A DNA stretch of 63,998 nt, filler included, from Stramenopiles sp. TOSAG23-6 (lineage: Eukaryota), in assembly GCA_900128565.1 (NCBI GenBank). It is 8 parts of 8 records of this genome, joined end to end, with 100 filler letters (N's around TTAATTAATTAA, not from the genome) between each part and the next. Parts side by side here need not be neighbours in the genome. Positions count along the whole stretch, not along the records: positions 24,100 to 32,025 come from LT636499.1; 7 more parts are not named here. One strand, 5' to 3'. Below, piece by piece: positions 3,401 through 56,252 of the stretch. A program made the translations under genes and the position numbers. How positions within the stretch are numbered: the first letter of the stretch is position 1; each line of letters begins with the position of its first letter. The notes under the pieces are model-generated. The model was not told the DNA's origin and made no database searches. It saw only the letters and a program-made list of their open reading frames with translations.

Positions 3401-6400
3401 GGCATAAGGTATCAGAAAGTATTGCAAAGACGCGGCATAGCACACCAGGTGTAGGTTTGATTAGTCCCCCTCCCCACCATGATATTTATAGTATTGAGGA
3501 TCTTTCACAGCTTATTCTTGACCTAAAAAGTGCCAACCCCTCCGCTAGAATCAGTGTTAAACTAGTTTCAGAGTGTGGTGTTGGAACCATCGCAGCAGGC
3601 GTTGCCAAAGCACATAGTGAACACATTCTTGTTAGTGGTCATGATGGAGGAACAGGTGCATCTTCTTGGACAGGCGTAAAACATGCTGGATTGCCCTGGG
3701 AATTAGGCCTTGCAGAAACTCATCAAACACTTGTGCTAAATAATTTGAGAAGCAGAGTAACACTACAAACAGATGGTCAGCTGCGAACAGGAAGAGATGT
3801 TGTGATTGCAGCTCTACTTGGTGCAGAAGAATTTGGTTTTGCAACAGCGCCACTGATTGCTATGGGTTGCATTATGATGCGAAAGTGTCATCTTAATTCG
3901 TGTCCGGTGGGCATTGCTACTCAAAATCCCGAATTACGCGCCAAGTTTGAGGGTAAACCCGAACATGTCGTCAACTACTTCTTTGCAGTTGCTGAAGAAG
4001 CTCGCCACTACATGTCTACTTTAGGATTCAAAAGCATTGACGAAATGATAGGGAGAACTGATGTACTACGACCTTCAGAACGCGCGCGTGATCTTAAACT
4101 AGATTTTGAAGGACTTTTAATGCCTGCAACTTCGTTGAGATCTGATGTACCTGTTCTCCAAAGTATTGCACAAGAACACAATCTTGAGTCACGACAAGAA
4201 CATCAGATTGCGATGGACCTTGAAAGCCATCTTCGATCAACACCTTTGCAGACATTCGAACGGAGCATTCAGATTCATAACACAGATCGATCCTTTGGTG
4301 CGTCTCTGTCACATATAATATCAAAATTTATGACACAAAATGATGATTTATTGACACCACCGACAGTCTTGATGAAGTTGAAAGGATCAATAGGACAATC
4401 ATTTGGAGCATTTGGTGCTAAAGGTTTACAACTGCAATTGGAAGGAGATGCAAATGACTATGGTATGTGAAAAATTTTATTTATCTTCTTTTAACTATAT
4501 TTGTACTACAAAACATGTGCTCATTTTCAAACAACTCTCTCTATATACATACACTAATAGTCGCGAAAGGATTATCTGGTGCCGAAATATCCATTTTCCC
4601 ATCATCGGAGCATCCAGCAGAATTCAATGAGACAGAAAGTACCATTGTAGGTAATGCGTGTTTATACGGTGCAACTGCTGGTAATGCGTATTTCTGTGGT
4701 CGAGCTGGGCAGAGATTTTGTGTACGCAATAGTGGAGCAACTGCTGTTGTCGAAGGTGTTGGGGATCATGGTGCAGAATATATGACAGGTGGTAATCTAA
4801 TTGTCCTCGGGCAAACGGGTAAAAATTTTGCTGCTGGAATGAGTGGCGGTCTTGCCTTTGTCTACGACCCAAGCGGCACATTTGCGATAGCGTCGTGTAA
4901 TACTGAAACAGTCGACGTGGTTCCTCTTGAAAACGAAGATGTCGCTTTTGTACAATCTTGTGTTGAAAATCACCTCTCAAAAACCAGCTCAAAGAAAGCG
5001 CAACATCTTTTACTCAACTGGGATATTGAGTGCAGACACTTTGTGAAGGTGTACCCTGAAGATTATCGAAGAGTGGTTGAAAGCTTGCAGGCAAATGTCG
5101 ACGGTTTGAATTTGAAAAAGATGCCGACAAAACAAAAGCAAACAGCAACACTCAATAATATTCAAAATAGATCGTTCAGCACATCGACACAAAATTTTCC
5201 ATTTATGACGGTTCCTCGATCGGAGCAATTATACCGCGATCCTCGTGAACGTATTTCTGATTGGTCTGAAATTAAAGCAGACACAAACAATCGGAGCGAA
5301 GAAGTGCAAACACAAGCCACTCGTTGCATGGACTGCGGTACACCATTTTGTCAATCATCCACTGGATGTCCTCTAGGAAATGTTATACCAGAATGGAATA
5401 GTTTTGTGAGCCACGGGCAATATCTTGATGCATATAATAAGCTAATCTTAACAAACAATTTCCCAGAATTTACGGGTAGTGTATGTCCTGCCCCGTGCGA
5501 GGGTGCATGTGTTTTAGGCATCAACAGCGATCCTGTTTCAATCAAAAATATAGAAATGGATATTATCGATTATGCATTTGAACATGACTTTGTAAAGCCT
5601 GCGGTTCCGTTGAAACGCACAGGAATGTCAGTCGCTGTGATTGGAAGTGGACCTTGTGGGCTCGCAGCAGCGGATCAGCTAAATTCCGCGGGTCATCAAG
5701 TGACAGTGTATGAACGGAGTGATGAGATTGGAGGCCTGCTTATGTATGGCATCCCAAACATGAAGCTGGAGAAGGAAGTTGTCCATAGACGGGTGAAAAT
5801 TCTCAAAGAAGCTGGTATTTCGTTTCAAACAAATTCTGAAGTTGGAGTCAATGTTGATATTGAAGAAGTGACATCGAGTTATGATGCTGTTTTAATTGCC
5901 GTAGGATCGACAATTCCAAGAACTTTAGGCAATATGAAAGGATCGAAACTAAAGGGCGTTGTGAGTGCAATGGACTATTTGACACCAGCAACAAAGAAAC
6001 TTCTAGGCAATGCAAATGAAAGTGCGCATGACGAGTATCTTAATGCGGAAGGAAAAAATGTAGTTGTTATTGGCGGCGGCGATACTGGTGTTGATTGCAT
6101 TGCAACGGCATTGCGTCAAAATGCCAAGAGTATTATCTCACTTGAAATTCTGGATATGCCACCGTTGAAACGAGGTGTTGGCAATCCTTGGCCAATGTGG
6201 CCTCGAATTTATCGTACGGACTATGCACATGAAGAAAGTATTGCAAAGTTTAATGAAGATCCCCGCAAATATAATATTATTACTAAAAGTATTCTCGATA
6301 ATGGTAGTGGAGCTGTTGCAGGTGTTGAAGTGAATAATGTCGAATGGATTCCTGCACCGATTGTTGATGGTGAACGTGCAAGTTATGAACTACGAGAATT

Positions 6401-7065: not shown

Positions 7066-7936
7066 TTAATTGTAATTTACTGAGTCACTCCATGCACGTT
7101 CAGCCTCCCCTTTTGCTACTGAACTTTCAGAGTTAGCAGTACACAAATGAGTTCGAAGACCTTGTCCAAAGTCGATGTATTGTGATAAAATATTTTTTTA
7201 GTAAAAAAAATTGTTAGCTACGAAATTTTCTACTAAAAAAAAATCGAAATTCACAATGAAAACGTTCACTGGTCTAGGATTTTCTTCAATTGCTTTTAGC
7301 ATTCCAACTATACATTCATCCCGAGAAGCAACTAAATCTTCCATTGTTGTTCCTTTTGTCTCTCGTTCGGAACCTGCGACAAGCAATGTTTTCATATCGT
7401 CCGTTACTGGAGGAGCATGTATTGAAAAAGTATTTCAAAATTTCAAAAATTTGTTAGATACAAAATTTAGTACGAAAAAAAATCGAGATTAAAAAAAATA
7501 TTTCTAAAATTTGAAATTCATTATGAAAACGTACAACTAGACGTGATATAATGCGTGTAATATGTCAATTGTGCAACAAATGAGTACATTGAGATACCTA
7601 GGATAAAATTCGGGTTTGTGTGTGTAACACTCAGTAAATTCGAAATTCGTTAGGTACAAAATGTAGTACGGATTAAATTTCAAATTAACTTGGGATGTAT
7701 TTTGGAAAAATATTTCAAAAAATAATTCGTTAGGTACAAAATTGCGTACGAAAAAAAAAAATTCAAAATTGAAAAAAAATAAAACATACGTATTATAATA
7801 TTGATAATAGTGCATATAACATTCTCCAAATAATGTGTACAAAACGATAATTAAAATATAAATGAGTTCTAATTCAAAAAAAAAAAAAATTGTTAGGTAC
7901 AAAATTGCGTACGAAAAATAAATTCGAAATTGAAAA
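7066..7936 (-). CDS. partial intron-rich gene of unknown function; exon phases uncertain
   Basis: Coding-like segments (APPVTDDMKTLLVAGSERE...) between minus-strand family elements at ~7175-7267, 7417-7534 and 7695-7789. Confidence 0.35.
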
Positions 7937-8658: not shown

Positions 8659-10483
8659 CTATTGTGACAACTGCATTTCCTTCAATAGTTCAATATTATA
8701 TTCCAGCTGTTGCTTTTCAATACATTTTGTAATCCAGGGATAAGTCTCTGTTATATCTTCCCAATTAATTTTTTTTCCAAAATTGAATATATTTGATGTT
8801 TTAACCATATCTTTGAATTCCAACATTTCATTTGCCAGAAAAAGCGCTATAACTGAGGTTAGTTCCTCCGAAAATCTTTGGGCTATATAACCTTTGTATA
8901 ACAGTTCAATCCAAGCTATATACGACTTGACTAATGAATATTTCACCATATTACGAATCCTAAAAGAACTGCGAATCTGTCGAAGAATGCATGTACTAGC
9001 AGGTGAAGGATTATCCATTGAAAACAATTCAAGTCCCATGTATTTGGAAAAATATTTCAAAAAAATAATCGTTAGGTACAAAATTTCGTACGAAAAAAAC
9101 ACTCGAAATTGAAAAAAAAATAAAACATACATGAAAGTCTCCCCGGTTTTTTTTATTTGCTGTAGGATTTCATCAAAATAAATTACACTTTTAGAAAGAT
9201 CATGTTTACTATTGGAATTGCATAGTGCCTCTGCACAAGTCCATTTCAGAAATAAATGATTTGGATATAATTTAATCAAAGAATTACATGGATTATGAAA
9301 AAATATTTCAAAGAAAAAACGTTAGGTACAATATTTCGTACAAAAAAACAAATTTGAAATTGAAATGAAAACGTATAATATCCAGTTGCTACACCAGAAA
9401 TCTCCGAAATCTCCGATCTCGGGATGTTCGTATCTGGAGCAGGACCTGCCCACCATTCAATAACTAGAACCTGTCTAATACCGCTTGTTATTGGTGCAAC
9501 ACCGTGCATCTCAAATGACCGCCAAAGAATACATATATTGTGAAAAAATATTTTTTTTAAAATCATTAGGTACTAAATTTGGTACGACAAAAAAAAAATA
9601 ATGATAAAAACGTACAGTCGCCCTGATGCATAGTGTACGAGACAACACCTGAAAGGCTATTTTGGGCCATGAACTCTCCACCTGTATAGTTGCTGTAGTT
9701 TGAAAGCATGAAGCCAGCACTACCATGCGAGAAAATGTCCATATGCCATCCTATTTGTGCGGCTTCGAATTCGTCCGTAGAGCCTTCATATTCTAAAAAT
9801 TCAATGCAGCGAATTTTAAGTGTCTGGCCTGTTTTTAACACAGCGGTTTGAAGACCCCATCCAGATGCCTCATCTTGATTTCTGAAAATGTTCTCCAGTT
9901 TTTTAAGAAGTTTTGGATACATATTTTTGAAATGAGTATGTAAATATGTCACTTTATGACCAGGCTCAGGACTCAACTCATTTACCCCAAACTTACGAGG
10001 CGCCTGTTTAAATGCTGCTGGAATACTCTCATCTGCCAGCACGCGATCTTTCACGTTCTTTATATTACGAATATCCTCATCATTTAGAGCATTTGATATC
10101 CTGATTGTTCCAGGCATTAATTCCAGTGTTGAGTTGAGACATGAAAACTCATCTCTCCAAAACGAGGAAATTGCATGTTGCATCTCAGGAGTAGTTATAC
10201 CCACTTCCCCTAGATCTTGCGGTGTGAACATCATAATATCTAAAGTTTCTCCGTCTATGTTGTTTTTTATTAAATTCTTTCGGAATGTTGACACCTGGTT
10301 TTGATCAGGGTCAAGTGAGTCAAGAGTTTGATTACCCTTGTCACTACTAACAACACGATTTAGCCACTCAAGAATATCACCATTTGACCACTGTACTGGT
10401 GATTTTGTCACGCTACATTCATCCACTATCTCACCCAAACTTGATGAAACAAAATGCAGTACAATTAATAGCGGTATTTTCAT
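8659..10483 (-). CDS. secreted 2OG-Fe(II) oxygenase with SAM-like domain; introns 9533-9615, 9288-9376, 9038-9130
   Basis: Signal peptide; WH-D motif, YTGGEF, spliced GD|CILWRSFEMHGVAPITSGIRQVLVIEWW typical of the 2OG-Fe(II) fold. Confidence 0.75.
9038..9130 (-). mobile_element. introner-like GT-AT intron
   Basis: AT|GTATG..core..AAATACAT|G, 93 nt. Confidence 0.75.
9288..9376 (-). mobile_element. introner-like intron with apparent AT-AT ends
   Basis: ATACGTTTT at the family donor position, core present, ends ATCCAT; frame joined correctly. Confidence 0.55.
9533..9615 (-). mobile_element. introner-like GT-AT intron
   Basis: CT|GTACG..TACCTAAT..CAATATAT|GT; restores GDCILW. Confidence 0.8.
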
Positions 10484-15916: not shown

Positions 15917-16265
15917 GTATGTTTTATTTTTTTTCAAATTCGATTTTTTTTCATACGAAATTTTGTACNNNNNNNNNNNNNNNNNNNNNNNNNNNNNNNN
16001 NNNNNNNNNNNNTTAATTAATTAANNNNNNNNNNNNNNNNNNNNNNNNNNNNNNNNNNNNNNNNNNNNCCTTTTGTATTGTAAAAAAAATTTTTTTTTTT
16101 TTTTTTTTTTTTTGTTAGGTACAATATTTACTATGAAAAAAAAATGTAAAAAAAAAATCAAAATTTTTTTTTTTTGGTTTAGGTACAAAATATCGTACGA
16201 AAAAAAAAATTAAAAAAATAAAAATAAAAAAAACGAAAATTAAGTGTAGGGTAAAAAAAACGTAC

Positions 16266-23999: not shown

Positions 24000-24133
24000 N
24001 NNNNNNNNNNNNNNNNNNNNNNNNNNNNNNNNNNNNNNNNNNNTTAATTAATTAANNNNNNNNNNNNNNNNNNNNNNNNNNNNNNNNNNNNNNNNNNNNG
24101 GGGGGGGGGGAAAAATTTTTTTTTTTAATTTTT

Positions 24134-24186
<53 letters not shown>

Positions 24187-24285
24187 CGAAAAAAAAAAAA
24201 ATCGAATTTTTTTTTTTTTTGAAAAATTTTGTACCTAACAAATTTTTTTTTTAGAAAAATTTTGAAATATTTTTCCAAAATACAT

Positions 24286-27200
24286 GGAGAACACAAATCG
24301 AAAGGTATAAAAACAGCAATAAATATTGCACTGAAAGCCATTACAAACAAATGGGGTGGTAATATTTCGTATAATCCAACTAAAAAAATAGCATCTTTAG
24401 AGTCGATTTTGGAGAAAAAAAAAAAACTGTTGAATGATTTTTATACCGAAAACCAAGATACAATAAATCATGCAAATAGAGTAGCTGCTGCTACAACTAT
24501 TCAGTCTGCTGTACGTCGCCGTCAAGAAAGAATGCGACAAGAGGAAGCAGCAGCAGCAAGAGAAGCTGCTGCTACAACTATTCAGTCTGCTGTTGAGTCT
24601 GCTATTGATTCTGCTGTACGTCACCATAAAGCAACTAATAATAATAATAATAATAATGATGATGATGATGATAATGATGCTCATCAAAAAACAACAGATT
24701 TTTCTGAAACAGATGATGATATTGATAATGTTTATACTACTGCTGATAGTGATAATGTTTATACTACTGCTGATAGTGATACTATTTATACTACAAATGA
24801 TACTACTACAAACCCTAAAAAATACCCTAAAACAAATAGTACTAATGCTATTACAACAAAATATCAACAATTGAAGAAAGATAAAAACGATGCATTCGAA
24901 AAAAAGGTACATGAAGAATTGAAACATTCATTCAGTATTACAAATCCAGTTACAAAAACAAATTTTAAATTTCAATTACAAAAATTGAAATTAAAAAATT
25001 TATCTGACGTTAAAGATATTCAATTAAGAGAAGGAGACACAAATCAATCGCTCAATGTAGAATTAAAAACAGGTAAAATTTTTGTCGAAGCTACAATACA
25101 ACTTGATATAAAGGCTAATAAATGCGCTAGTATATGTCGTCAAGATGATCCAGATACAGCAAAGCATCATGTACGTTTTTTTTTTTTTAAAAAAAATTTA
25201 CGTTTTTTACATTTCGTACGAAATTTTGTACCTAACAAAATTTTTTATTTTTTTTTGAAATATTTTTTCAAAATACATTGTCCTTTATTGAATAAATGGA
25301 CAACAGCTGCTCGTGCAATCCCAAATGTTATCTATCGAACGGCTCCTACTGAAAGCAGTCCCCCAACGTATTGGCGGAATAAAAAGTCATGTCATCGTTG
25401 TCTTGATGATATTGAAAGGTATGTATCGTTACCCGGTAATGAAAATGATTTTGAGAAAATCGGATTAACATACGACTGTGTAGCTAACCCAACGTGGGCA
25501 GATGATCCTAATGCTCCACCTGGTTCTGTATCAACAAGCAAAACATTTACAATCAAAACTTCAATTGAGAACATTGACACGGCGTTTGATTTGTTTCTTG
25601 GACTAAATTTTAAAAAAATGTTAAATCTCGAATTAGGCGATGTTGTTCAAGAACCAATCCGCTGTTTATCTTCTTTAATTATGGGTTCTGAGGATACAGA
25701 AACATTTGGAATGTTAGAAGGAGATGAAACACAACAAAAAGCGATACAATTGGTTCATATGGATGTTAATATTGGAACATGTATGTCTTATTTTTATTTA
25801 TTTTTTTCAAAATTTCAATTTTTTTTTCGTAGTAAATTTTGTACCTAACAAAAAAAATGTAAAATTTTCAAAAAAAAAAAAAATATTTTTCCATAATATA
25901 GTGTCACAAATTGAATTTTTTGGTATTGAGAATCAAACATTGTTGACTGCTTTGGATGTCAGTGCTGAAGTTTTAAATATTGTTTTTAAGAATTTAATTT
26001 CTAGATTTACGCCAAGTCTTGCACAAAATGCAATTCGTCCACTTATGAATGTATGTTTTTTTTTTATTTTTTTAAAATTTCAATTTTTATTTTTTTTTTC
26101 ATACGAAATTTCGTACCTAACAAATTTTTTTTTTAGAAAATTTTCAAATATTTTTCCAAAATGAATGATTCGATTCATAAGTATTTAGATACACCAGGAA
26201 ATACGATATGTCCATCTAGAAAAAGAGCTACAATTAGTGAAGTCATTCAGATAATTCTTGGAATTAAATTACATAAACCTCTTGATGATATACGAAATTC
26301 ATTTGATTCGAAATCAACAATAAAAAGTTTTTTTGATACTCAAAACCCTGTCATTATAACAGTTGAATCATCATCAGTGCAATCATCAGGTGCTGGTATA
26401 GGGGCTACAGTCAGTGACGCAAAAGAACAAAAAGAACAAAAAGAAATATCAATCACACCTCAAGACATTATTGATGTATGTTTTTTTTTTTTTTTTTTTT
26501 ACAAATTCTGAAATTTTTTTTTCATAAAAATTTTGTACCTAACAAATTTTCAAAATTTTTTTTTTGAAATATTTTTCCAAAATACATGATTTGAAAAAAG
26601 AATTTGATACTTTGAAAGATGAATCGTTTATACCTAAGAATGCAATTGACTTGTCTTTGCCTAAATTAGCTGAAACAATTTCTGAAAACATAAAAAAGAG
26701 AAATGCATTATATGTTGCACCTGGCCAATTCACTAAACAACATGTAACTGAAGCTATATTTGATATGTTACCAAAGACATATCAAAAACCTATGCTTCAA
26801 ACTTGGGCTGAAAAAGAATTTAAGATTGGAAAAGGTTCTGTTATGTCCTTATTTTTGTATAGTTTGACCAAGAACAAACAACCAACCAATGATCAATGTA
26901 AAGACAAAGTTTCAGTACAACAATGGTTTAGGGATATTGTAAGTGATTTTCAAACATTTCATGTAGTGGATTTTGAGGAAACGTCAAGTAACGCTCAAGT
27001 TGATAAATTGAAATTGAGATATTTAGATCAAACTGAAACACCAAAGGAAAATGCTGCATGGGTTTTGGAACGGACATTTAGTGAAGGTAAACTTTTTGGT
27101 CCAGGTAGTAAGGAGCGGGAAAAATTGCTACCCCCATGCTCCAGAGTGAAAGATGGCGAAGAAAAAAAAAAGACAATACCAACATTAAATAGGAATTTAG

Positions 27201-30200
27201 CAAAGACTATCGCTTCTACAAAAAATAATACAGAAAATAATACAGTAAATGATGATGATGAAGCGGAGTCAGAAGAAAAAACTTGTTTAAACATAATTGA
27301 TTTTAATAATTATTGGATAATGGATTATATTCAACTTTTAAAACATATATTTTTGGAAGGGTATAGTGCAAATGGTGAATACAAGATTAATACGATTTTA
27401 CGTAAAATATTTGAGCATGGGAATATGCTCAATCGACCTCTTGATATTATTATGTATGATAGTTTGCGTGATGAACGAGATATCTATAAAAATCAAGCTA
27501 AAGATGCTGATCCTGAAGATGAACTTTTAGTTAAATTTAAAAGAATTGAGATCACAGGAGCGAATACGTTTAATGGTGATCCTGAGAAATTTAAACCATT
27601 CGAAGTTTTTTCACCAAAGGAATTAACAAAATTAGGTCAAAATGACTCGACCACAAATAACCCTACATTACGTTCAAGTCATACCATTAATACTAAATTC
27701 GAAATTGAAAAATTGGATGTTGACCTATTTCTCGAAATTGTTTCAAAAAAACCACCTCGCTTCCCTGAAGAAGCTGCTCTTGTTGGAATTAAAAAAACAG
27801 ATACCATTACTGAAACAGGACAAATTAAAGTTAGGGTTAGGACAAAAAATATCAAGGTTGATTCGTCTGCTTTAGTAGCGTTTGATAAAGATATTTTGGA
27901 GGAAACCATGATTGGATCAATTTACAATAGTCCAGGTACCTGTTTAGCCCATATGATTAAGGCTGCTGAATTTACTAAATTTACGATAGATGCTGATGTT
28001 GATGATATTAAAGTTGAGGATGTTAAAATGGGTGGTGATGACATCCTTACAGGTGGAACAAAGATGGTGATTGAGTCGTCTATTCATTTATTTAATATGA
28101 TTTTAAAAGAGAGAATTAAATCCTTTCTTAGCCACTTTATCATGCCACTTGTCAATGATGAAATAAAATCATCTATCAAAGACCAAAAGCAAAAAGATTG
28201 TGATATTCCACTTGGTGATTATAATGATATCGTTAACGTTGGAGCTGATGCATTTGTTCAAAATTGGAGGCATAAGTTACAAGTTTTGTTTGAAAATCCA
28301 GATTTTTTAAATATGGAAATAGGTGATGTCATTAGTGGTTGGAAGTTAAATGCATCTTTGGACTATTTGGACACACAAATTGAAGAATTGAATCAAGAAT
28401 TAATTGATATTCAAAACAATTCCCAAAATTCAAAAACAGATAAAGAAAAAAAAGATGAAATTATCAAAAAGAAAACTAAAATTATTGAAAGAAAACAAGA
28501 AATTATTCAACAAGCTAAAGAAAAAGCGAAAAATGATGCAATATTGGCCCGATTAAAATCAAATTATGATGAAAATTATGATGAAAATTATGATGAAAAT
28601 TATGATGAAACAATTGCTGTAGACAAAACAAATAAACAATTTGAAAAAAAATCTACAAAAGCATTGACATTGACTGGCACTACTACAACAAATGATGATG
28701 TAGACGAGTATGTCTGTCCTGCAGATTTTTGTAATGAAGATGTATTATATGTATGTTTTATTTTTTTTTCAATTTTTTTTTTCAATTTTTTTTTGTTTTT
28801 TTTTCATAGTAAATTTTGTACCTAAACCTAAAAGATTTTTTTTTTTTTTTNAAATNTTTTTCCAAAATACATAGTATATATGATAAAACTTTAGATTTTG
28901 CTGATCCAAAAGAAAAAGGTAGTTATAATCCAATATCCATTGGATTATTAGATTCACAATTTAAAAATGTAAAGATTGATGGTGTAGCCTCAATACAAAA
29001 ATCTGATTTGTTAGAGATCATCCCAAAAGATAAATTTGGAATAAAAAATCATATTATTTCAGGTAGTAAACCAATAGGTCCATTAGGAATCATGATTGAT
29101 TTTATGTTTGATTTAACTCAAGGCAAAGAAAATTTGGCCATACATAATGCATTGCGCATAGGTGTAAAGATGTTGGATGTTGACTTTATTGCTAATTTTC
29201 ATGCCCAAGTATCGAGGTTAAGAGTCTTAGAAATGCCTATCGTACAATTATTAACTCCAAGTTGTTGGTTATCAACACTGACAACACAACAAGCTCAAAC
29301 GGGGTTAGAATTAGATCCTTTGTTTGATCATCATGGAAATTTAATTCCTAAACGATACGATGGTCGAAAGTTCAAAGCTTGGGTTGATGAATGTATGTTT
29401 TTTTTTTTTTTGAAAAAAAAATCGAATTTTTTTTTCATAGTAAATTTTGTACCTAACAATTTTTTTTTTTTTTTTGAAATATTTTTCCAAAATACATTTT
29501 CCTTATCATTTAAGCGATTGGGTATAGAAATCAATTGTATAGAAGAAGATCGGAGTTGTTCTTCTCCAGGTTTTAAAGAAATACAAAAGAACTTAGATGA
29601 CGATACAATCAAATCCTTTACGAACGACATCAACACTGCTATTCATTATGTATTTCAACATTTTTCTAAACTTGAAGGAAGCGAAGCTTTAGATATTGTC
29701 TTGAATAAAATGCCAGGGTATTGCGAGAGGAACACAATGTTAATGTATGTTTTATTTTTATTTTTTTCGGTAAAAAAAAAATCGAATTTTTTTTTCGTAC
29801 GAAATTTTGTACCTAACAAAATTTAATTTTTTTTTTGAAATATTTTTACAAAATACATTGCCCCTGGTCGAAGAAAACCACAACCACCAAGAAAAGATCC
29901 AAACACGAAACCTGGACATCATTTTATGAATAATGTTGAAGATGGAATGAAAACATTTCGTGACATGTGGGGTGGACTGTTATTCTGGATTTCTGTGGCG
30001 TTTTTAAGTATTTGTATCTGTATGTTTTTTTTTTTTTGATTTTTTTTTTGATTTTTTTTTTCGTACGAAATTTTGTACCTAACAAAAAAAACAAAAAAAA
30101 CCTAAAGATTTTTTTTTTGAAATATTTTTCTAAAATACATGTATATGTCTTGGTTGTTGTGTGTGTAGACGACGAAGACGCGCAGATCGTGTAATTTTGG

Positions 30201-30854
30201 AATATCATGAAAAACTATCAGCAGCAGCTCATTTAGCAAAACAACATACAATAAATCCTAACCCTAACAAAATCCTTGGAAATGATCAAAGTAATCATGA
30301 CATTTGTGACAGTTCATCTTTTTCTTCTCTTGTATCTTCATCTACATTATCCAATAGGACCAATAGGAAAAAAAGAAACTCAATTCAAAAACAAAAAAGT
30401 GAAGTTTTAAATCGTTTCAAAAGACAAAAAAGTGGAAATTCAATTTCCCCCCAAATTGAGGAAGAGATTGAGGAGATTGAGGAGTTAGAAAATGGTACAA
30501 GAATTTGTAGTCACCCTACAAAAACCCCTAACCCTAGTATTCTAACTACAATGACTACAATTACACCATCCATAACAAATGAGACAAAAGACGAGACAAA
30601 AGAGACAAAAGAGAAAAATCATTCGGATTTGTTAGGTACAAAATTTGGTACAGAAAAAAATAATCAAAATGATCCGAACCCTAACCCTAACCCTAACGCA
30701 ACGAAATCAAATCAATCAAATCATTCAAATTCGAAGCGTTATTGTTCATCTTTTGATCTAACGACATTTGATGATAGTAAACATCAACTCGTTACAGAAC
30801 ACTTAGCTGATGAACATTCTATGTATGTTTTATTTTATTTTTTTTTTTTTACCG

Positions 30855-30886
<32 letters not shown>

Positions 30887-31905
30887 TTTTTTTTTTTTTT
30901 TTTTTAAAGGAAAATTTTTTCCTAAACATTTTTTTTTTTTTTTTTTTTTTTTTTTCACAATGCAGTGTTACTGTTGACGTTGCTGGAGATTCCATTTTAA
31001 AACAATTACCCGTCTTTACCTTTTCATTAGCTGGTTCGTTGAAAGACATGTATGAGGCACGTGCCTATGCTTTAGTTTTGATAGTAGGGCTATTTTCTGG
31101 TGTTTGGCCATATGTCAAATGTTTGCTACTCTTGTACTCATGGTTTGCTCCTCCTTGGGTATACTCATCCCGATCTCGCGGGAAAATGTTACAAGCTCTA
31201 GATATCATGGGGAAATGGTCTTTGATGGATGTTTATGTTTTGGTATTGTGTATGATTGCGTATAGATTACGTATTTTCAATCCTCCCAATTCTCTAATAT
31301 TGTTACCAGAACAATTTGTTGTTGTGGATATTGAAGTAGTTCCAATGTGGGGATTATATGTATGTTTTATTTTTTTTTTTTAAATTTGAAATTGAAATTT
31401 TTTTTTCGTACGAAATTTTGTACCTAACAAATTTTATAATTTTTTTTTGAAATATTTTTCCAAAATACATGCGTTTCTTGTGGCTGCAATTTCGGCTCTT
31501 CTCGTAAATCATGTAGTCATCCATTCTCATAGAAATGCAATTGCTGAAGAAATTTCTGTTGCTGAAATTGCAAGAGCTTGTGAAAAAGCTAAAGCCAAAT
31601 GGAAGAGAAAACACGAAAAACACGAAAAACAGAAATTAAAAATGCTGTTATTGAAATTGCAAGAGCTTGTGAGAAAGATAAAGCCAAATGGAAGAGAAAA
31701 CACGAAAAACAGAAATAATCATAATGGGGATCATTTTCAACTAACAATGTTTGAAAATAATCAAAATAATCAAAATGATCAAGGTAATATCATGAGTAAT
31801 ACAACGGATAATACGGATAATACAATAAATAATACAACAAATAATACGACGAATAACGAATTTGATGATGAGTTTGAACTCATTGCTGATCATGTAAACA
31901 ATCAT
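24286..31905 (+). CDS. large multi-exon membrane protein with C-terminal PqiA-like domain, partial at both ends; ten internal family introns
   Basis: Continuous frame after removing 25171-25278, 25781-25901, 26051-26166, 26476-26587, 28751-28872, 29393-29497, 29745-29858, 30020-30140, 30823-30965, 31360-31470; FSGVWPYVK..LDIMGKWSLMDVYV..WGLY|AF is PqiA-like. Confidence 0.7.
25781..25901 (+). mobile_element. family intron with GT-AG ends
   Basis: Same core; ends AATATAG where the others end AATACAT. Confidence 0.8.
30020..30140 (+). mobile_element. introner-like GT-AT intron
   Basis: CT|GTATG..core..AAAATACAT|GT; joins TM helix ..SICICICLGCCVCRRRRR. Confidence 0.75.
31360..31470 (+). mobile_element. 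introner-like GT-AT intron
   Basis: TAT|GTATG..core..AAAATACAT|GCG; restores WGLYAFLVAA. Confidence 0.8.
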
Positions 31906-31936
31906 GTACGTTTTCAAAATTGAATTTCAAAATTTA

Positions 31937-31986
<50 letters not shown>

Positions 31987-32601
31987 TCCGCACCAAAAAA
32001 ATTTAAAAAAAAAAAAAAAAAAAAANNNNNNNNNNNNNNNNNNNNNNNNNNNNNNNNNNNNNNNNNNNNTTAATTAATTAANNNNNNNNNNNNNNNNNNN
32101 NNNNNNNNNNNNNNNNNNNNNNNNNAATAATATGGAAAAATATCTCGTAGGTAGAATGATAAATAATATATAACTTATCTAGTAGAATCTATAATTATAA
32201 TAAAAGGACAGTACATCATGCTAATGTAATTTTTAAATTATCATTATCATCTAAGGATTGAGTTCATTAATATTTTTATTAATTAAGACATTAATTCAGT
32301 TTTTTAAAAATTCATTAACTTAGGGTTAGGGTACTCGATTTTGAGACTAGAATCTGATAAACTCTCTCTCGTGTCTCGCTGATCTCTCTCACTGATCTCT
32401 CACTGATCAGCCTATAAAGTATATTTTTCCAGTATACGTCGAGGTACTGTAATTAAAACGCGGAAAATTCTATCTGTCCACTCCGGGATAAATGTGTAAT
32501 GAATGAAACCTTTTCACACTCTTGCCATATTCTTTCTTATTTTGTATTATTAGGGTTCGTAAGTGATTTCTACTATAATAGTTGCTTGTCCAATAAAGGT
32601 G

Positions 32602-34738: not shown

Positions 34739-37684
34739 ATGAGTAAAGTGCCATCAGCACCATCCGCACTATCCCTTGACTGGTCTTTAGGAGTGAACAA
34801 TGATATTGTTGATGGAGTTCATAGTTTGTGTGACGGTAGCCGAAATGCTCTTTTTTATGTCGCTGCACACTCAGGTGTAATTTATGACTTTCAGAACAGA
34901 ACTCAGAAACTCCTTCAAGGTCATTGTAACGTAATTACTTCTGCATGTACAAGTCAGGACAAAAGATGGATAGCGACAGCAGATAAAGGTAATGATTCGA
35001 TGATTGTCGTTTGGGACTCTTTCACTGGGGCACCCATCAAAACTATATTTAATCCTCACGAAAAAGGTGTAATTGCCATGGATATGTCACCTGATGCAAT
35101 GCTTCTCGTCACATTATCTAACGATGAATCTAATGAAACCGAAGGAACATCAGATGAAACCAGTGAAAGAGAAATTGTACAAGAAATTTGTTTATGGGAG
35201 TGGACCGCGGATAGAGTTGGTCCATTATACAGATCTAGAGTACCTATAAATGATGTACAAACATCTGTACGTTTTAACCCCAACGACGTTCGGGAAATTG
35301 TGAGTAATGGTTCACAACGTGTTGTGTTTTGGTGTTGGGAAAAACGAAAATTAGAGTCCATTTCACCAGTTATTAATCCTTCTGATTTCCAGCAAGAAAT
35401 TGGAACTTTCACTCAGTCTGTATTTTTGCCAAATGATTCAAGTGTAGTAACAGCGACAACAGACGGTGACGTTGTATTATGGGATTGTACGACAACTTCA
35501 CCTGATAAAGCACGTCGGGCAGTAAAGATAATTCATTTATCAGAATCAGGAATATTGTGTATTTATGTGGCTAATAATTATATCGTTACTGGTTGCGCTA
35601 GTGGTGCGGTTCGTTTCTTTGATTTACGTTTTCGAATTGAAGGTTGGTTTGAGGATATAAAAGCTGGTCCAGTAACTTCATTATCATTTGCAAATGGTAT
35701 ACCACGACTCTCTGTTTCATCTGATCCAGATTGCTTTGCTATACAAGATTTTATTTGTGGTACAAAAAAATCCTTAGTTGTATGTTTCCATCATTCGTTT
35801 CAAAATTTAATTTAAATATTTTTTTCATAGTACATTTCGTACCTAACGATGTTTTTCACTAAAATAAATATTTTTCACAATACATGTAGGTCTTGAAGCC
35901 CCACTTTGTGACGAAGTTGATGAAACTCGGCGTAGAGGTGTTCTTTTATTACAAGGAATCTCTAGTTCAATTCGAGGTTTATCCACCCATCCGCGAATGT
36001 CACATGTTGCACTCAGTTCATCGAATGGCTCTGTTCAATTATGGGACTTTGAATCAAAACGGTTATTGATGATACGTTCTTTTGACGATAGTAAAGGTGA
36101 ACCAGTATCGCTTCAGTATCATCCTAGGGGTAATTATCTTGTCCAAGGTATGGCAGATGGGACTCTAATGTGTCTTCATCCAACTACGCTTGAGAATGTA
36201 CCGAATGGATTATTTAAAACTGGTGAAGGGGCAATCACTGATATACGTTTTTCACTTGATGGATTATTTATGGCAACAGCTGACACTGAGTTGTGTGTTG
36301 CTTTGTATTATATGGGTGAGGAATGGATATTTTTGGGAAAGTATAAAAGCCATTCTGCGCCTATTACAGGTTTAGAATTTGGAATTTCAAACAAAGGTGT
36401 ACCTTTTCTTGTTTCTGTTGGTGAAGATAGGCATATTGTTGAATACGACATTGAAGGATCTTCAGTAAGAAATGGTCTTTTATTAGCTCATCCAAGGAAT
36501 AAAGTAGAGCAACGTGCTATTCCTACGACATGTATGGTATATAAAAATCCCACAAAAGATCCTAGTGATGACACGAGTGGAGAAGATTTTGTTTTGATTG
36601 CAAATAATGAATTTAAAGTTTGTACATGGAGTACAACATACGAAGTGTGTAGACACACATCTCTTGGGCCTACGTATGTATGTTTTTTTTTTTTTTCAAT
36701 TTTGAATTTTTTTTTCATACGAAATTTTGTACCTAACAATTGTTTTTAGATTTTTTTTTGAAATATTTTTCTACAATACATGGAGGCCCCTTAAATAGGA
36801 TGTTGCCGATACCAAATGGAGAAACAAACGGTAATGAGAATTCTGTATATCAAAGTTCAAAGTCTAAATATATTGCATATTCTACATTAAACAAAGTCGT
36901 TGGTATCGCCAAGCTTCCATTGGATGGTAATGGAAATAGTACTGTTGGATTAATTGCACATCCTGATGAAATTGCGAATATATCAGTTTCTTATGATGGT
37001 CGATATTTACTAACTGCCGGGGCGAATGATCGTACGGTCAATATATGGAAAATAAACACCAATATTGTTGATGATGATGACGTAGTGATAGATGATAATT
37101 TTAAATCAAAAAACATTAAACCAAGTATGATACCATTTATCTCTCAATTAGATGGAGGTATTTCTGGGAGTGTTTATAAAGATCTCTGTGACTATTTTTA
37201 TTATGCACAATTGAGAATGCAAGGTGAAAAATGTTTGAATGATCGAGAGATCACAGGAAAAATTACATTGTCTGAAATTCCCAATATAATGCGTGCTTTA
37301 GGGTATTACCCAAGCAAATGGGAATGTGCACGAATGTGCAACGAAATTAAATACAGTAATTTTGTACAGTCCGGCAAAATCGAGACTTTAATTGATTTAG
37401 ATTGTTTGATTAAGTTGTATGTGAATCACAGACCATTGTTTACCGTTGACAAGGAAGCAATTACGAAAGCATTTGAAACACTTACGCAAGGGACAATGGA
37501 ACTCGAGTGGAAAGAACTTTTATCAAGGTTGAAGAATGAAGGCGAATGTATGAGTAACGAGGAAATGGATGCATGCTTACATGCCTTGGTGGATAAAGAA
37601 CAACCACCAGCACTTGTAGATCCGAAAAAGTTTGCTACAGATGTGTTGGGTTTTGAAGAGTATGTTGAAGAACATGAAGGTTAG
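34739..37684 (+). CDS. CFAP251: cilia- and flagella-associated protein 251 (WDR66); GT-AT introns 35780-35885 and 36678-36781
   Basis: QKLLQGHCN, WIATADKG, LGPTY|GGP, LPLDGN, IAHP, DYFYYAQLR, MRALGYYPS, LYVNHRP. Confidence 0.9.
35780..35885 (+). mobile_element. introner-like GT-AT intron
   Basis: GTT|GTATG..TACCTAAC..CAATACAT|GTA GGT; nearby AG is out of frame. Confidence 0.75.
36678..36781 (+). mobile_element. introner-like GT-AT intron
   Basis: TAT|GTATG..core..CAATACAT|GGA; restores conserved LGPTYG. Confidence 0.85.
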
Positions 37685-49268: not shown

Positions 49269-52200
49269 ATGCCGAAGAAGAAAACGGCAAGTGCACTAAG
49301 GCGTAAAGCCAAGCGTGCGCAACGCTTTTCTGGTGGTGCTGTATCGATAATAGATGCGAAAAATGCTAAAAAGGTGCAAAAAAAGAAAGAGGAGAAGAAG
49401 AATCGCCGTGCTGCAGGAAAAGATTTTAGTAACTCAAGACATGTTACAAAAAAAACAAAACACACCTTAGCAAAGGGTGCATCTAAAAATTCCAAAAAGC
49501 AATGGAAACAAAATGTTGGTGTACGTCAATCATCAGGTTCTGCTACTCTTGATATGAATGATGAAAATGAATATGAAGTTGGAAGTCGTGAGCATGCGGC
49601 CAAAGTTGCTGCAGAAGTTTTAGCTCAAGAAGAAGCTGACCTTGCTCCGATGGATGAGGAATATGCAGAGTATTCATCATTTCTTACCCAGATGAATCTT
49701 CCTGAAGTAGGAGAAAATCAGTCTAATTCTAATAGAAAGAAAAAACGCGACATAAAAAAGAGGAAGCACTCTGAAGTATCCGTTGGTGATGCCAAGCTTC
49801 CAGTAAATGATCACGTTAATAGTGACGACGCTTCCGTCAACAATGGTTATGATAATACTGCGAATAAAGAATACATTTCAAGTGATGATTGTGACGTGGA
49901 TCTTTCATCTGATGAAGATGGAGAAAATGAAGAAGCAGAATTTGAATTGAGTCGTCGACGTGTTCCAAATAACTGGAAAGATTGTGGTGATGAGAGGGCT
50001 GAGCGACTTCCAGTGAGAGACGCTGTAACTGGTAAAATGGTCATACCAACAGCTAAGCTTGATTTAGGGAGTTTAAGTCGTCGTGAAATGGCCCGATTGG
50101 CCCAAAAAAAACAAAATATATCAAAAGACTCCATTGAAGTCGATTCCACTCAGAAAGATAATGATGAAGTTGTTGACAATGATAAAGTTGTTGATGATAC
50201 AGTAGAAGATATAATATCTGATAAAATAAGTATTAATACTGAAATCAAAGATGATATAATAGAAACAACATTTACTGATGAAGAAATTTTACTGTATAAG
50301 AAAAAAAATCGTCGATATTTTCAACTTTATATTGCAGAGTTATGCGAATGTATGTTTTATTTTTTTTTTTTTGTATGAATTTTTTTTTCATACGAAATTT
50401 TGTACCTAACAATTTTTTTTTTTAAGAAAATTTTGAAATATTTTTCCAAAATACATGTATAATTTCTGATCCAACGAAAGCTGTTCGTTCTCATCATGGT
50501 GGTCCTTCTAAAATACAAAATCTATTAAAGATTTGTAAAGGTGAGACAAATTATGAATCAATTAGCTCTTCTGGTAATGATCCTACAACAATGAAAACAA
50601 TGAAAACAATGAAAACAGATACATATATTCAGAAAATGGCAATGCTTTCTCTGTACGTTTTCAAAATTTGAATTTTTTACCTATATATTTTTTCATAGTA
50701 AATTTTGTACCTAACTATTTTTTTTTATTTTCGGTAAAAAAAAAAAATATTTTTTATAAGATATGGTCGCTGTATTTGCAGATATTCTTCCAGGTTTTAG
50801 AATACGACTTCCCTCTGCTGCGGAAATGCGAATGTCAGTTACGAAAGAAGTCAAAATGCTTCGCGCAAAAGAAAAAGCCACATTAGATGTATATTCTTCA
50901 TTTTTGAAATTTTTGAGCCAGGAAATACATGGTCGCCGTCCAGTGGGACATCATGGAACGAACCGTTTTTCTGGACGATCTAAAAATGGAAATTCAGCTA
51001 AAGAAAATGTATTTTTTTTTTACAAAAAAATCGAATTTTTTTTCGTACGAAATTTTGTACCTAACAAATTTTAGTTTTTTTTTTACAAAAAAATCGAATT
51101 TATTTTTTATAGTAAATTTTGTACCTAACAAATTTTAGTTTTTTGTTTTGAAATATTTTTCCAAAATACATGAGGAATTTGCACAAGCTAAAACAAAGAT
51201 GCAAAAAGATCATAAAGCAAAACAAGGTCGAGGTCCTCTTTTTGTGACTGCAGTTCGATGTTTGTCTCGTTTGTTGGAAAGTCGACCGGAATTTAATTTT
51301 TGGGAGTCTTTAGTAGCTACACTTGTACCTCTCGCCGCAAACCGTAAAACGATAGTCTGTGAAGAAGTATGCCAATGTTTTCATCAGATGTTTAAGAAAG
51401 ACATAAAAGGAGAATTTTCAAGTGTAGCTGTCCGTTCAATTGGCAAAACTATGAAATCTAAAAACAATGTTGTTAGTAGTCATTTAATGAGATGCTTACA
51501 AGAAGCTAAAGTTTCGACTACAGAAAAAATAGTAAAAAAACGTAAACGAAAACGTCGAAGATTGGATGAAGTAGCTGCTCAAATGGAAGAAGCAAATGCT
51601 ACTGAAAATGCTGCGACAGTTGCTGCATTTCGACAAACGACACTTCGAGAGATTATGATCATTTATTTACGATGTATACGGAATTCTTGTGCAACCTCTC
51701 CTGCATTACCTGCTGCATTGAAAGGTGTCACTAGAGTCTGTCATTTAATGAATCTCGACATTGCAGAAGAAGTGATTGAACTGTTTCGTGGACTTTTGGA
51801 AGATCCCAAACTTCCATTGGAAAGTGGTTTGCAGATTGTATTAGCGACACTTCGAATGCTTCAAGGTCCTGGACGAGAGTTAGATGCTGATATTAGTACT
51901 TTCCTTAATTACGTGTCAGAGTCATTTTTTAGAGTTGGAAATATTTCAAGATTTTATAGTTGTGTAGAAACAGCTATTAATTGCGTTGATAATGCATTGA
52001 TGAAGAGGCGGGAAAGGCAACCTTCGCGTATACGTCAAATTGCAAGTCGAATTCTTGATGCTAGTCTTCAAATGCCTCCTCACTCTACTTTAGCATTACT
52101 CAGTTTATTTCGTAGTTTATCAGCGAGGTATCCTGCGCTTAAATCATTATTTCTAGCTCCTGAGAGTGATATTGCTAACCCTAACACTAATTTTTCTCAA

Positions 52201-55968: not shown

Positions 55969-56252
55969 GTGCGTTTTATTTTTTTTCAATTTCAATTTAA
56001 TTTTTTTTTCGTACGAAATTTTGTACCTAACGATTTTTTTTTGAAATATTTTTNNNNNNNNNNNNNNNNNNNNNNNNNNNNNNNNNNNNNNNNNNNNTTA
56101 ATTAATTAANNNNNNNNNNNNNNNNNNNNNNNNNNNNNNNNNNNNNNNNNNNNGNCAGAACTTGTTGTTTTACTTTTATGGCATCCAGTATGAAACATGT
56201 CGTATCAATAGAGTATACTAGTTGCAGATAGTAATTATTACAGTGCATCATA

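Follow-up and report, generated by a model that had tools for sequence, protein, structure and literature searches.

The locus and its intron-bearing gene

The stretch of DNA analysed here (the window, 63,998 bases, from assembly GCA_900128565.1) consists of eight contigs of about 8 kb chained via runs of N and TTAATTAATTAA linkers. The contig at positions 24100-32025 carries on its plus strand a gene (24286-31905) that is cut off by the contig at both ends, and whose eleven coding exons are separated by short introns that resemble one another over their full length and that, in most cases, begin with GT and end with AT. Ten complete and two partial copies of this intron family were located in the gene, the partial ones at the contig ends. 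When the eleven exons were joined in silico at the consensus ends of the introns, a product of 6447 nucleotides (nt) was obtained, corresponding to 2149 codons and free of stops. Our reading, to which we assign a probability of roughly 0.6, is that a coding gene is interrupted here by a genome-wide family of short introns, which would have spread by introner-like copying and insertion and which the spliceosome would remove at GT...AT. The features of the gene are given below; a slash marks an intron junction, and family copies were recognized with a hidden Markov model (HMM).

24286..31905, plus strand: eleven coding exons of one gene truncated by the contig at both ends; the encoded protein is large and has a PqiA-like membrane domain close to its C-terminus
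24209..24285, plus strand: 3' part of a family copy, ending ...CCAAAATACAT/GG (nhmmer E 3.6e-9, model positions 31-101)
25171..25278, plus strand: family intron, GTACGT..ACAT, phase 0 (frame test, HMM, alignment)
25781..25901, plus strand: family intron with an AG end (..ATATAG), phase 1, A-rich spacer
26051..26166, plus strand: family intron, GT..ATGAAT, phase 0
26476..26587, plus strand: family intron, GT..ACAT, phase 0 (repeat similarity in DNA runs stops at 26588)
28751..28872, plus strand: family intron, GT..ACAT, phase 0, two N inside
29393..29497, plus strand: family intron, GT..ACAT, phase 1 (gapless against the relative P0125)
29745..29858, plus strand: family intron, GT..ACAT, phase 2 (gapless against P0125)
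30020..30140, plus strand: family intron, GT..ACAT, phase 1, exon end CT (gapless against P0125)
30626..30667, minus strand: antisense core piece of 42 nt, in frame in a coding exon (nhmmer E 1.2e-6, model positions 25-66; plus-strand hit E 4.7)
30823..30965, plus strand: degenerate family intron with an AG end (..ATGCAG), phase 2, core TTCCTAAAC
31360..31470, plus strand: family intron, GT..ACAT, phase 0, within the PqiA-like domain (gapless against P0125 and P0129)
31906..32025, plus strand: 5' portion of another intron (GTACGTTTTCAAAATTGAATTTC...), truncated by the end of the contig

The copy at 24209-24285 belongs to an intron upstream of the first exon; its 5' part disappears in the T/G runs with which the contig begins. 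Using the PqiA-like exon as query, HMMER retrieved 1679 relatives at E<=0.001; the gene family comprises long proteins, of about 1200-3400 amino acids (aa), in which the domain lies near the C-terminal end. The long exon 26588-28750 gave no long homologue by word-based search. The best relative, P0125 (1693 aa), is 58% identical to the joined product over 187 columns and 30% over 329 columns, and its alignment is gapless at four GT..AT junctions, those of the introns 29393-29497, 29745-29858, 30020-30140 and 31360-31470, the last of which is also crossed without a gap in the alignment with P0129. At the GT..AG intron 30823-30965 the P0125 alignment contains a one-residue gap, three residues before the junction.

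Two repetitive stretches were seen in the coding exons of this gene. Telomere-like CCCTAA/CCTAAC repeats at 30660-30700, 30270-30285 and 30525-30540 encode N-P repeats, and the exon that follows the PqiA-like domain contains a duplication of about 90 nt (31540-31700), by which a lysine-rich segment is repeated.

Consensus and junctions of the intron family

The family HMM, built from 24 copies, produced 43 nhmmer hits at E<1e-3 in the window, and the family was placed at 40 positions, distributed over all eight contigs and covering 3803 of the 63,186 non-N bases. Copies measure about 83-125 nt, typically some 110, and are longer where part of the element is duplicated. Read from 5' to 3', the consensus is composed of GTATGTTTT, a T run, a CAATTTCGAATTT-like block, a second T run, CGTACGAAATTTTGTACCTAAC, a T-rich or A-rich spacer, and ATATTTTT(C/T)CA(A/C)AATA(C/T)AT.

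A junction logo was assembled from the 30 complete copies in the window. The first eight intron positions read G (29 copies), T (30), A (29), T (23) or C (6), G (28), T (29), T (28) and T (30); the last eight read A (18) or C (8), A (30), A (29), T (29), A (27), C (22) or T (6), A (30) and T (27) or G (3). The 3' end is AT in 27 of the 30 copies, the other three (25781-25901, 30823-30965 and 40378-40473) ending with AG. The donor begins with GT in 29 copies and conforms to GTAYGT in 28, the exceptions being 51009-51171 (GTATTT) and 7175-7269 (GTGAAC). On the exon side, position -1 is T in 25 of 30 copies, against a background T frequency of 0.285, and position -2 is A in 21; the exon ends with AT in 18 of 30, with a background of 0.094 for this dinucleotide, and in the gene at 24286-31905 it does so in nine of ten cases, the tenth being CT. 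Position +1 of the following exon is G in 19 of 30. The sequence-only reading of this DNA had described junctions of the type AT/GTAT...ATAC/AT, a T before the donor in nearly all copies and palindromes in the interior of the element, and the logo and the motif counts bear out this description: the fully symmetric form, exon AT plus GTAT ... ATACAT, was counted in the rows of 13 of the 30 copies, AT is the commonest exon end, and the palindromic motifs TTTCGTACGAAA and GTACGAAATTTTGTAC occur 11 and 12 times in the window, respectively.

The interior is equally recurrent. The 25-mer TTTCGTACGAAATTTTGTACCTAAC is found exactly 11 times, ten on the plus strand and one on the minus strand, and the core TTTGTACCTAAC, with at most one mismatch, occurs 41 times where 0.41 occurrences are expected. 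In most copies the CCTAAC core is located 32-49 nt before the 3' end, the smaller figures obtained for a few reflecting the choice of a later CTAA by the script. The pattern AAATTTTGTACCTAACN{8,38}GAAATATTTTT matches 16 copies in the window and had zero matches in metagenome, GTDB-genome and viral contigs. An upstream AT accompanies GAAATATTTTT-type copies in 14 of 19 cases and the others in four of 11 (hand count), an association too weak to use.

Four introns contain two cores: 47608-47761, with a near-exact tandem duplication of about 64 nt; 51009-51171, with CGTACG and TATAGT halves; 48187-48370; and 16112-16265. Between two divergent genes, two palindromes of 24 nt lie 44 nt apart (41497-41520 and 41541-41564), the first of which, TTAGGTACAAAATTTTGTACCTAA, is perfect, and the second slightly different. 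Both hold the intron core on the two strands, and they may be a relic of an ancestral form of the element or a protein-binding site.

Probable position of the cuts

The open frame and the colinearity with homologues require that the introns are removed at exactly the consensus ends. In the frame test the donor was fixed at GT and the acceptor was placed at the consensus end or shifted by +1 or +2, and the longest open frame over the junction was recorded. The consensus end was preferred in 24 of 27 copies, about nine being expected by chance. Of the three failures, 40547-40656 was resolved once its neighbour 40378-40473 was read with an AG end (codon-usage scores of 17.4 and 20.1 vs -5.1 and -16.4), and the other two, 7695-7789 and 7417-7534, precede a likely start codon and look like introns of a 5' untranslated region (UTR). 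Homology gives the same result in the importin-beta gene, where exon 1 stops at residue 404 and exon 2 begins at residue 406 of chain 1ukl_A, leaving codon 405 split by the intron; the 856 aa encoded by the joined exons can be aligned over their whole length with six homologues, with no gap at the junction.

Canonical splicing at an internal AG was rejected as a general rule: from the core to the 3' end, 18 of the 30 copies are devoid of AG, and splicing at the first exonic AG beyond the intron would disrupt the frame in 21 of the 30. An AG after the core was observed in nine copies, and in five of them (at 26136, 40626, 47510, 50426 and 51138) it precedes the AT end by 30 or 33 nt and is in frame. 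These five could be alternative acceptors adding 10-11 residues, which are stop-free in the cases read.

Where the exon ends with AT, the registers AT..AC, TG..CA and GT..AT would yield an identical mRNA. Only the GT..AT register keeps the dinucleotides constant over the copies; under the other registers the variant copies would start with CT, TT or CA and end with GA, CC or AA. Since three family copies and the intron of a glutamate synthase gene end with AG, the machinery accepts both A-U and A-G.

Evidence for common descent and copy number

The introns constitute a family that is spread over unrelated genes and has a very high copy number. The copies are alike over their full length and not at the splice signals only. 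Full-length identity to the nearest neighbour is 0.74-0.92 for 26 of the 30 copies, against a maximum of 0.69 after shuffling, and 0.67-0.70 in four long copies with duplicated or degenerate parts. The nearest copy is frequently in a different contig, and the copies occupy unrelated genes. Blocks that have no obvious role as signals can be aligned as well: the CAATTTCGAATTT-like block, the T runs and the palindrome's left half. This left half occurs in recurrent variants (CGTACG, CATACG, CATAGT and [CT]ATAAA) in unrelated genes, while the right half (AAATTTTGTACCTAAC) is constant. Likewise, a form with an A-rich spacer, containing ..TTTTTTCACAATA.. and ending with ..TTTTTTCACAATAYA[T/G], is shared by the copies 40378-40473, 47273-47372 and 9533-9615 and, more loosely, by 25781-25901 and 47608-47761. 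Shared variants that are linked in this way indicate lineages of source copies, and not independent decay or selection on signals.

Copy number was approached through DNA runs matching a stretch of 4.75 kb. Runs X1 and X2 represent one organism (A) from one sample, X3 is a seawater metagenome from another study that contains a small share of the window and in which a relative appears at 97-99% identity, and X4 represents a second organism (B) from the study of X1. Matching contigs numbered 9370 of 119,919 in X1, 7811 of 99,615 in X2, 6215 of 6,561,904 in X3 and 12 of 40,381 in X4. Summed depth, which conveys an order of magnitude only and not a copy number, was about 394,000-755,000 in bins with a copy vs about 360-930 in most exon bins, a difference of some 1000-fold. 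The repeat similarity stops at 26588, one base beyond the end of the intron. Nine of the 14 contig ends in the window fall within a family copy, as a high-copy repeat breaks the assembly. By tally, the 26 coding copies are evenly distributed over the three phases (9, 9 and 8). The intron load is uneven, one intron in the 856 codons of the importin-beta gene and 12 in the gene at 24286-31905, a distribution typical of insertion.

Copies elsewhere in the window, accompanying genes and source organism

The remaining copies, together with one intron that does not belong to the family, are the following.

4463..4560, plus strand: non-family GT..AG intron of the glutamate synthase gene, 98 nt long (spanned by the Pfam GXGXG profile, 63/64)
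7175..7269, minus strand: diverged family copy, donor GTGAAC, core GTAGCTAAC
7417..7534, minus strand: family intron, probable 5' UTR
7695..7789, minus strand: family intron, probable 5' UTR, with a partial core after it at 7639-7673
7880..7933, minus strand: partial copy at a contig end
8037..8097, plus strand: 3' part of a copy (..ATATAT/) at a contig start
8266..8363, plus strand: family intron, GTACGT..ATATAT, exon end CA
9038..9130, minus strand: family intron
9288..9376, minus strand: family intron, donor ATACGT, end ..TCCAT
9533..9615, minus strand: family intron, GTACGT..ATATAT, A-rich spacer
15917..15968, plus strand: 5' part of a copy at a contig end
16112..16265, minus strand: two-core copy at a contig start
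22840..22935, plus strand: family intron
35780..35885, plus strand: family intron in the CFAP251 gene, GT..ACAT, phase 0 (exons abut at 355/356 of chain 8glv_LY)
36678..36781, plus strand: family intron in the CFAP251 gene (frame test; homology places the junction within about 8 residues)
40144..40194, plus strand: 3' part of a copy at a contig start
40378..40473, plus strand: family intron using AG (AAAG/GT..TATAG/GT; codon-usage score)
40547..40656, plus strand: family intron, GT..ACAT, phase 1
47273..47372, plus strand: family intron, A-rich spacer
47444..47543, plus strand: family intron
47608..47761, plus strand: family intron in which about 64 nt are duplicated in tandem
47943..48057, plus strand: 5' portion of a copy, merging into a T run at the end of its contig
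48187..48370, plus strand: long two-core copy, end ..ATAAAT (frame test uninformative)
50350..50456, plus strand: family intron
50653..50764, plus strand: family intron, GTACGT..AGATAT
51009..51171, plus strand: family intron with two cores of different variants (CGTACG, TATAGT)
55969..56053, plus strand: 5' portion of a copy with donor GTGCGT, cut off by a contig end
60664..60761, plus strand: family intron in the importin-beta gene, GT..ACAT, phase 2 (split codon 405 of chain 1ukl_A)

In the CFAP251 gene, use of the AG that lies 4 nt beyond the AT end of the intron 35780-35885 would break the frame. The intron of the glutamate synthase gene serves as a comparison. Its removal is supported by the frame test (746 vs 28 and 23), and its identity to the family, 0.66, is at the level of the shuffles. 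As this intron has no family blocks and must nevertheless be removed, the family blocks are dispensable and AG acceptors work. The glutamate synthase gene is otherwise intron-free over 5.9 kb, and genes thus vary widely in their intron load.

The window is an artificial chain in which the contigs follow one another in descending size, separated by linkers with stops in six frames, and adjoining contigs are not neighbours in the genome. Its GC content varies between 27 and 44%. The genes that it carries are eukaryotic: an NADH-glutamate synthase, an importin-beta, a flagellar WD40 protein similar to CFAP251, an M16 peptidase, a mitochondrial carrier, GrpE and DDRGK. An open reading frame (ORF) of 163 aa on the minus strand (40828-41319) has no Pfam match and is visibly richer in GC than the neighbouring genes of its AT-rich contig. 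No Rfam family was matched in the window at the gathering score.

The source organism is a marine flagellate with an AT-rich genome, whose lineage we leave unplaced. The nearest relatives of its importin-beta are a EukProt protein with 69% identity and a JGI protein with 66%, the rest reaching at most 52%; among the best 120 homologues, about a quarter of which carry a name, there is no named euglenozoan or metazoan protein. The Atlas neighbours were clusters of Streptophyta, Ascomycota and Chordata. A 2016 single-cell genome paper on marine diplonemids is cited in PMC12621601, in its account of that group, for many non-canonical introns. A diplonemid origin was set aside, named euglenozoans being missing from the importin-beta homologues just mentioned.

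Proposed mechanism

We propose that one element was copied and inserted into transcribed DNA, giving rise to an introner-like family. In the model, each copy would supply its own donor, GTATGT, and a branch-site-like core, CCTAAC, and the spliceosome would remove it at exactly GT...AT or, in about one copy out of ten, at GT...AG, the acceptor being the last AT of the conserved AATAYAT. If the copies are removed at GT...AT, A-U is the usual 3' splice site in this organism. Moreover, as the core is followed by several other ATs before the end is reached, context or distance must select the acceptor, and our guess is that the AATAYAT context singles out the right one. Removal presumably takes place in RNA and by the major spliceosome, and the copies probably arose by transposition or by reverse splicing.

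The donor GTATGT and the CTAAC core resemble the U2 signals of the yeast type, and the conserved 5' terminus of U1 can pair with GTATGT, exon position -1 being the exception. A T at this position weakens canonical U1 pairing, and is hence better explained by the insertion site than by splicing. In ordinary introns the last G pairs with the first G during the second catalytic step, as established by yeast genetics and cryo-EM; in the present family a G-U contact could take the place of the G-G contact. Attribution of the introns to the major spliceosome is plausible.

A more far-reaching version, which we put forward tentatively and regard as somewhat short of an even chance, is that a selfish intron family replaced nearly the whole intron complement and shifted the default 3' splice site from AG to AT while the donor stayed canonical. 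The AT would then be either the element's own end or a copy of a 2-bp AT target, and the major spliceosome would have adapted via U2AF or via base pairing between the first G and the last base.

Evidence on the mode of spread and rival explanations

Several observations weigh against the introner-like interpretation. The sequence-only reading had described the introns as looking like a mobile element with terminal inverted repeats and a preference for A/T targets. What holds of this proposal is the repeated, high-copy character of the family, with shared variants in unrelated genes; the inverted repeat, on the other hand, amounts to ATGTAT/ATACAT, 6 nt of which two are exonic, with three further pairs after a 1-nt bulge, and it shows no covariation. 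Neither the end helix nor the core hairpin contains a compensatory change (0 of 12 pairs), the proportion of paired cells being 83.3% both in the alignment and after shuffling, and RNAalifold gave no consensus structure for the family. The folding energy of one copy, -16.5 kcal/mol (z -2.04), was reached by 7 of 200 shuffles. Target-site duplications were analysed as by Gozashti et al., following the procedure outlined in PMC9860276, by comparing matches within loci with those of shuffled pairs at 16 positions. Exon positions -2 and -1 match the last two intron bases in 21 and 24 of 30 copies, where 21.0 and 22.6 are expected from the shuffles, and the lowest P of the 16 positions (0.027, at -8) was taken as chance. 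A duplication of a 2-bp AT target, the first of two models advanced for the element, stays at shuffle level and is thus indistinguishable from a preference in insertion or splicing. The second model, an element TGTA..TACA, fits less well, as five of the 30 copies have no T before the donor and three end with G. A 2-bp AT duplication, an AT/G insertion preference and a splice-site preference all fit the AT before the donor, a situation that is "ambiguous" by the criteria set out in PMC9860276.

The expectation of a transposase or Rep gene with the element found no counterpart, the 36 ORFs scanned showing no transposase, reverse transcriptase or Rep domain in Pfam. Every copy of at least 83 nt lies in sense orientation within a gene, in coding or UTR sequence, and there is no full copy between genes in the 64 kb. 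Copies that are exclusively genic and in sense are not what free insertion of DNA predicts, and would fit equally well with reverse splicing or strong selection. Among the contigs of the DNA runs, none from a relative's run bridged an intron position and no empty site was seen, and a query with importin-beta exon 2 retrieved no relative in metagenome contigs. The family looks proliferated, which may have happened by a DNA route or by reverse splicing.

As regards the cuts, one coding copy alone, 7175-7269, is out of frame when cut at the consensus ends, by 1 nt; a cut placed one base off or an assembly error in a homopolymer are possible reasons. Part of the similarity between copies may be due to splicing, if the conserved 3' block and the core serve to some extent as splice signals. 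The sample consists of 64 kb of a fragmented, single-cell-like assembly, from which splicing itself, its exact register and its efficiency are deduced.

It has to be considered whether the introns are U12-type introns with a lax 3' end, excised by the minor spliceosome or by a co-evolved derivative of it and multiplied by a transposon in the manner proposed for Physarum. The 5' signal is near-invariant up to +8 and resembles RTATCCTT at six of eight positions, the CCTAAC core is like TTCCTTRAC minus one T, the copies with an A-rich spacer have no pyrimidine tract, and TTYCAMAAT is found 6-13 nt before the 3' end, at a spacing similar to that of U12-type introns. In the account given in bioRxiv 10.1101/2020.10.12.336362, the U12-type introns of Physarum often have inverted repeats and a TA direct repeat, and the U12 snRNA (small nuclear RNA) has co-evolved, the branch motif being changed. 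Nevertheless, the consensus GTATGTTT departs from the U12 signal RTATCCTT in that position +5 is G in 28 of 30 copies and +6 is T in 29, instead of CC. GTATGT is an exact U2 donor of the yeast type. In most copies CCTAAC lies 32-49 nt from the 3' end, only a loose TTYCAMAAT being close to it, and Rfam detected no U11, U12, U4atac or U6atac within the 64 kb. Co-evolved snRNAs would have to be presupposed, and we regard this origin as unlikely. Quite unlikely, in our view, is that the introns are non-mobile, possibly old, and kept alike by selection on long obligatory splice signals, perhaps with gene conversion. Conservation indeed peaks at the donor, the CTAAC core and the last 20 nt, nearly all introns of the window are of one kind, as a splice code predicts, all copies are in sense within genes, and no target-site duplication, clear terminal inverted repeat or transposase was found in the 30 copies and 36 ORFs. 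Selection on signals would not account, however, for the alignment of the CAATTTCGAATTT-like block and the left palindrome half, which have no expected role as signals and carry shared variants of several bases. The decay of the left half next to a preserved right half fits a relic, and the glutamate synthase intron has to be removed without any of these blocks. The antisense core piece in a coding exon (30626-30667), the even phases and the uneven intron load between genes also speak against this explanation.

The third alternative is removal without a spliceosome, either as in the nonconventional introns of euglenids and diplonemids, whose ends are paired, or by excision of DNA similar to that of the internal eliminated sequences of ciliates. 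Exon AU plus GUAU can pair with AUACAU, one copy has the folding energy given above, the excised piece has a short direct repeat at its borders, its 3' end is non-canonical, and nonconventional introns with paired ends are present in Euglenozoa according to PMC12621601, in its treatment of that group. However, the donor is conserved and compatible with U1 in 29 of 30 copies, unlike that of nonconventional introns as these are characterized in PMC6221363; the pairing has neither compensatory changes nor a consensus structure, and some of the shuffles fold as stably. In addition, the elements are present in DNA at repeat-like depth, and the best 120 importin-beta homologues, about a quarter of them named, include no named euglenozoan. 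A mechanism of this kind appears highly improbable. Returning to introner-like spread and splicing at GT...AT, it is this interpretation that we compare in the following with known systems.

Relation to known intron families and implications

Introners of marine algae were reportedly the subject of work by Huff et al. in 2016. The fungal elements of van der Burgt et al. (2012) are said to be GT-AG introns with a stable predicted structure, whereas the present family ends with AT and has no structural support. The fungal elements have in common with it, as summarized in PMC9860276, that they are found in genes in sense orientation only, without target-site duplications or terminal inverted repeats, and reverse splicing has been proposed for them. 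The introners of Micromonas pusilla, Aureococcus anophagefferens, Chrysochromulina, Symbiodinium and others, as portrayed by Gozashti et al. (2022; PMC9860276), share with the present family the occurrence of near-identical short introns in unrelated genes, an element that brings at least one splice site, and a short repeat at the border that would allow scarless excision. Families of hundreds to thousands of copies are described in that survey, many with target-site duplications of 3-9 bp and clear terminal inverted repeats. These marine-alga introners use GY-AG, whereas the present family uses AT in 27 of 30 copies, has an inverted repeat of 6 nt and makes up nearly all introns of the window. 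The family would work like an introner but departs from the AG acceptor that is common to the described families.

Other systems are alike in different respects. A comparison with another marine protist is offered by Amoebophrya (Farhat et al. 2021; PMC7789003), where repeated introns that are not GT-AG, with direct repeats at the borders, inverted repeats and no linked transposase, are reported; the direct repeats measure 3-5 nt, the inverted repeats, of 8-20 nt, form hairpins, and there are no common terminal dinucleotides. The present family is, in contrast, uniformly GT..AT, with a canonical donor and no support for a hairpin. The best precedent for an AT acceptor is Fritillaria borealis (Henriet et al. 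2019; PMC13326754), in which a U2-type spliceosome is described as removing introns with 3' AU or AC. Less than 10% of its introns are GT/AG, some 3' ends follow a purine-rich sequence, and the U2AF subunits are duplicated and divergent, according to the same source. Fritillaria borealis is an animal with diverse non-canonical 5' ends, whereas the donor here is canonical and the best homologues of the window's proteins are not metazoan. In Physarum polycephalum, the mass gain of U12-type introns with extended signals, inverted repeats and a dinucleotide repeat (TA) is comparable, and GT-AT is common among the non-canonical boundaries, as presented in bioRxiv 10.1101/2020.10.12.336362; the signals given there are RTATCTT and TTTGA, the latter 10-12 nt from a 3' end that is mostly AG or AC. 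The signals of the present family are different: GTATGTTTT, and a core, CCTAAC, that precedes the AT end by 32-49 nt. The literature searched yielded no account of an intron complement in which GT-AT predominates, nor unusual introns of orphan marine lineages that would fit; an earlier description is possible. In a full-text search of the literature, the core motif turned up in primers only.

Few features of eukaryotic genes are as constant as the GT-AG rule. The known exceptions (Fritillaria, Amoebophrya, euglenozoans and U12-type introns) have varied ends, an altered donor or a minor spliceosome, as far as the sources cited above describe them. If the reading proposed here is true, about nine tenths of the introns would be GT-AT, uniform and derived from one element, and the organism would constitute a natural system for the study of how the last base of the intron is read, by the small subunit of U2AF or by pairing between the first and the last base. 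It would also reveal to what extent the splice code can be shifted by an intron that proliferates. The symmetry between exon AG and intron AG has been viewed as a relic of target-site duplication; the same symmetry is found here, with T replacing G. Finally, gene finders that assume AG would mis-annotate nearly every gene of this organism.

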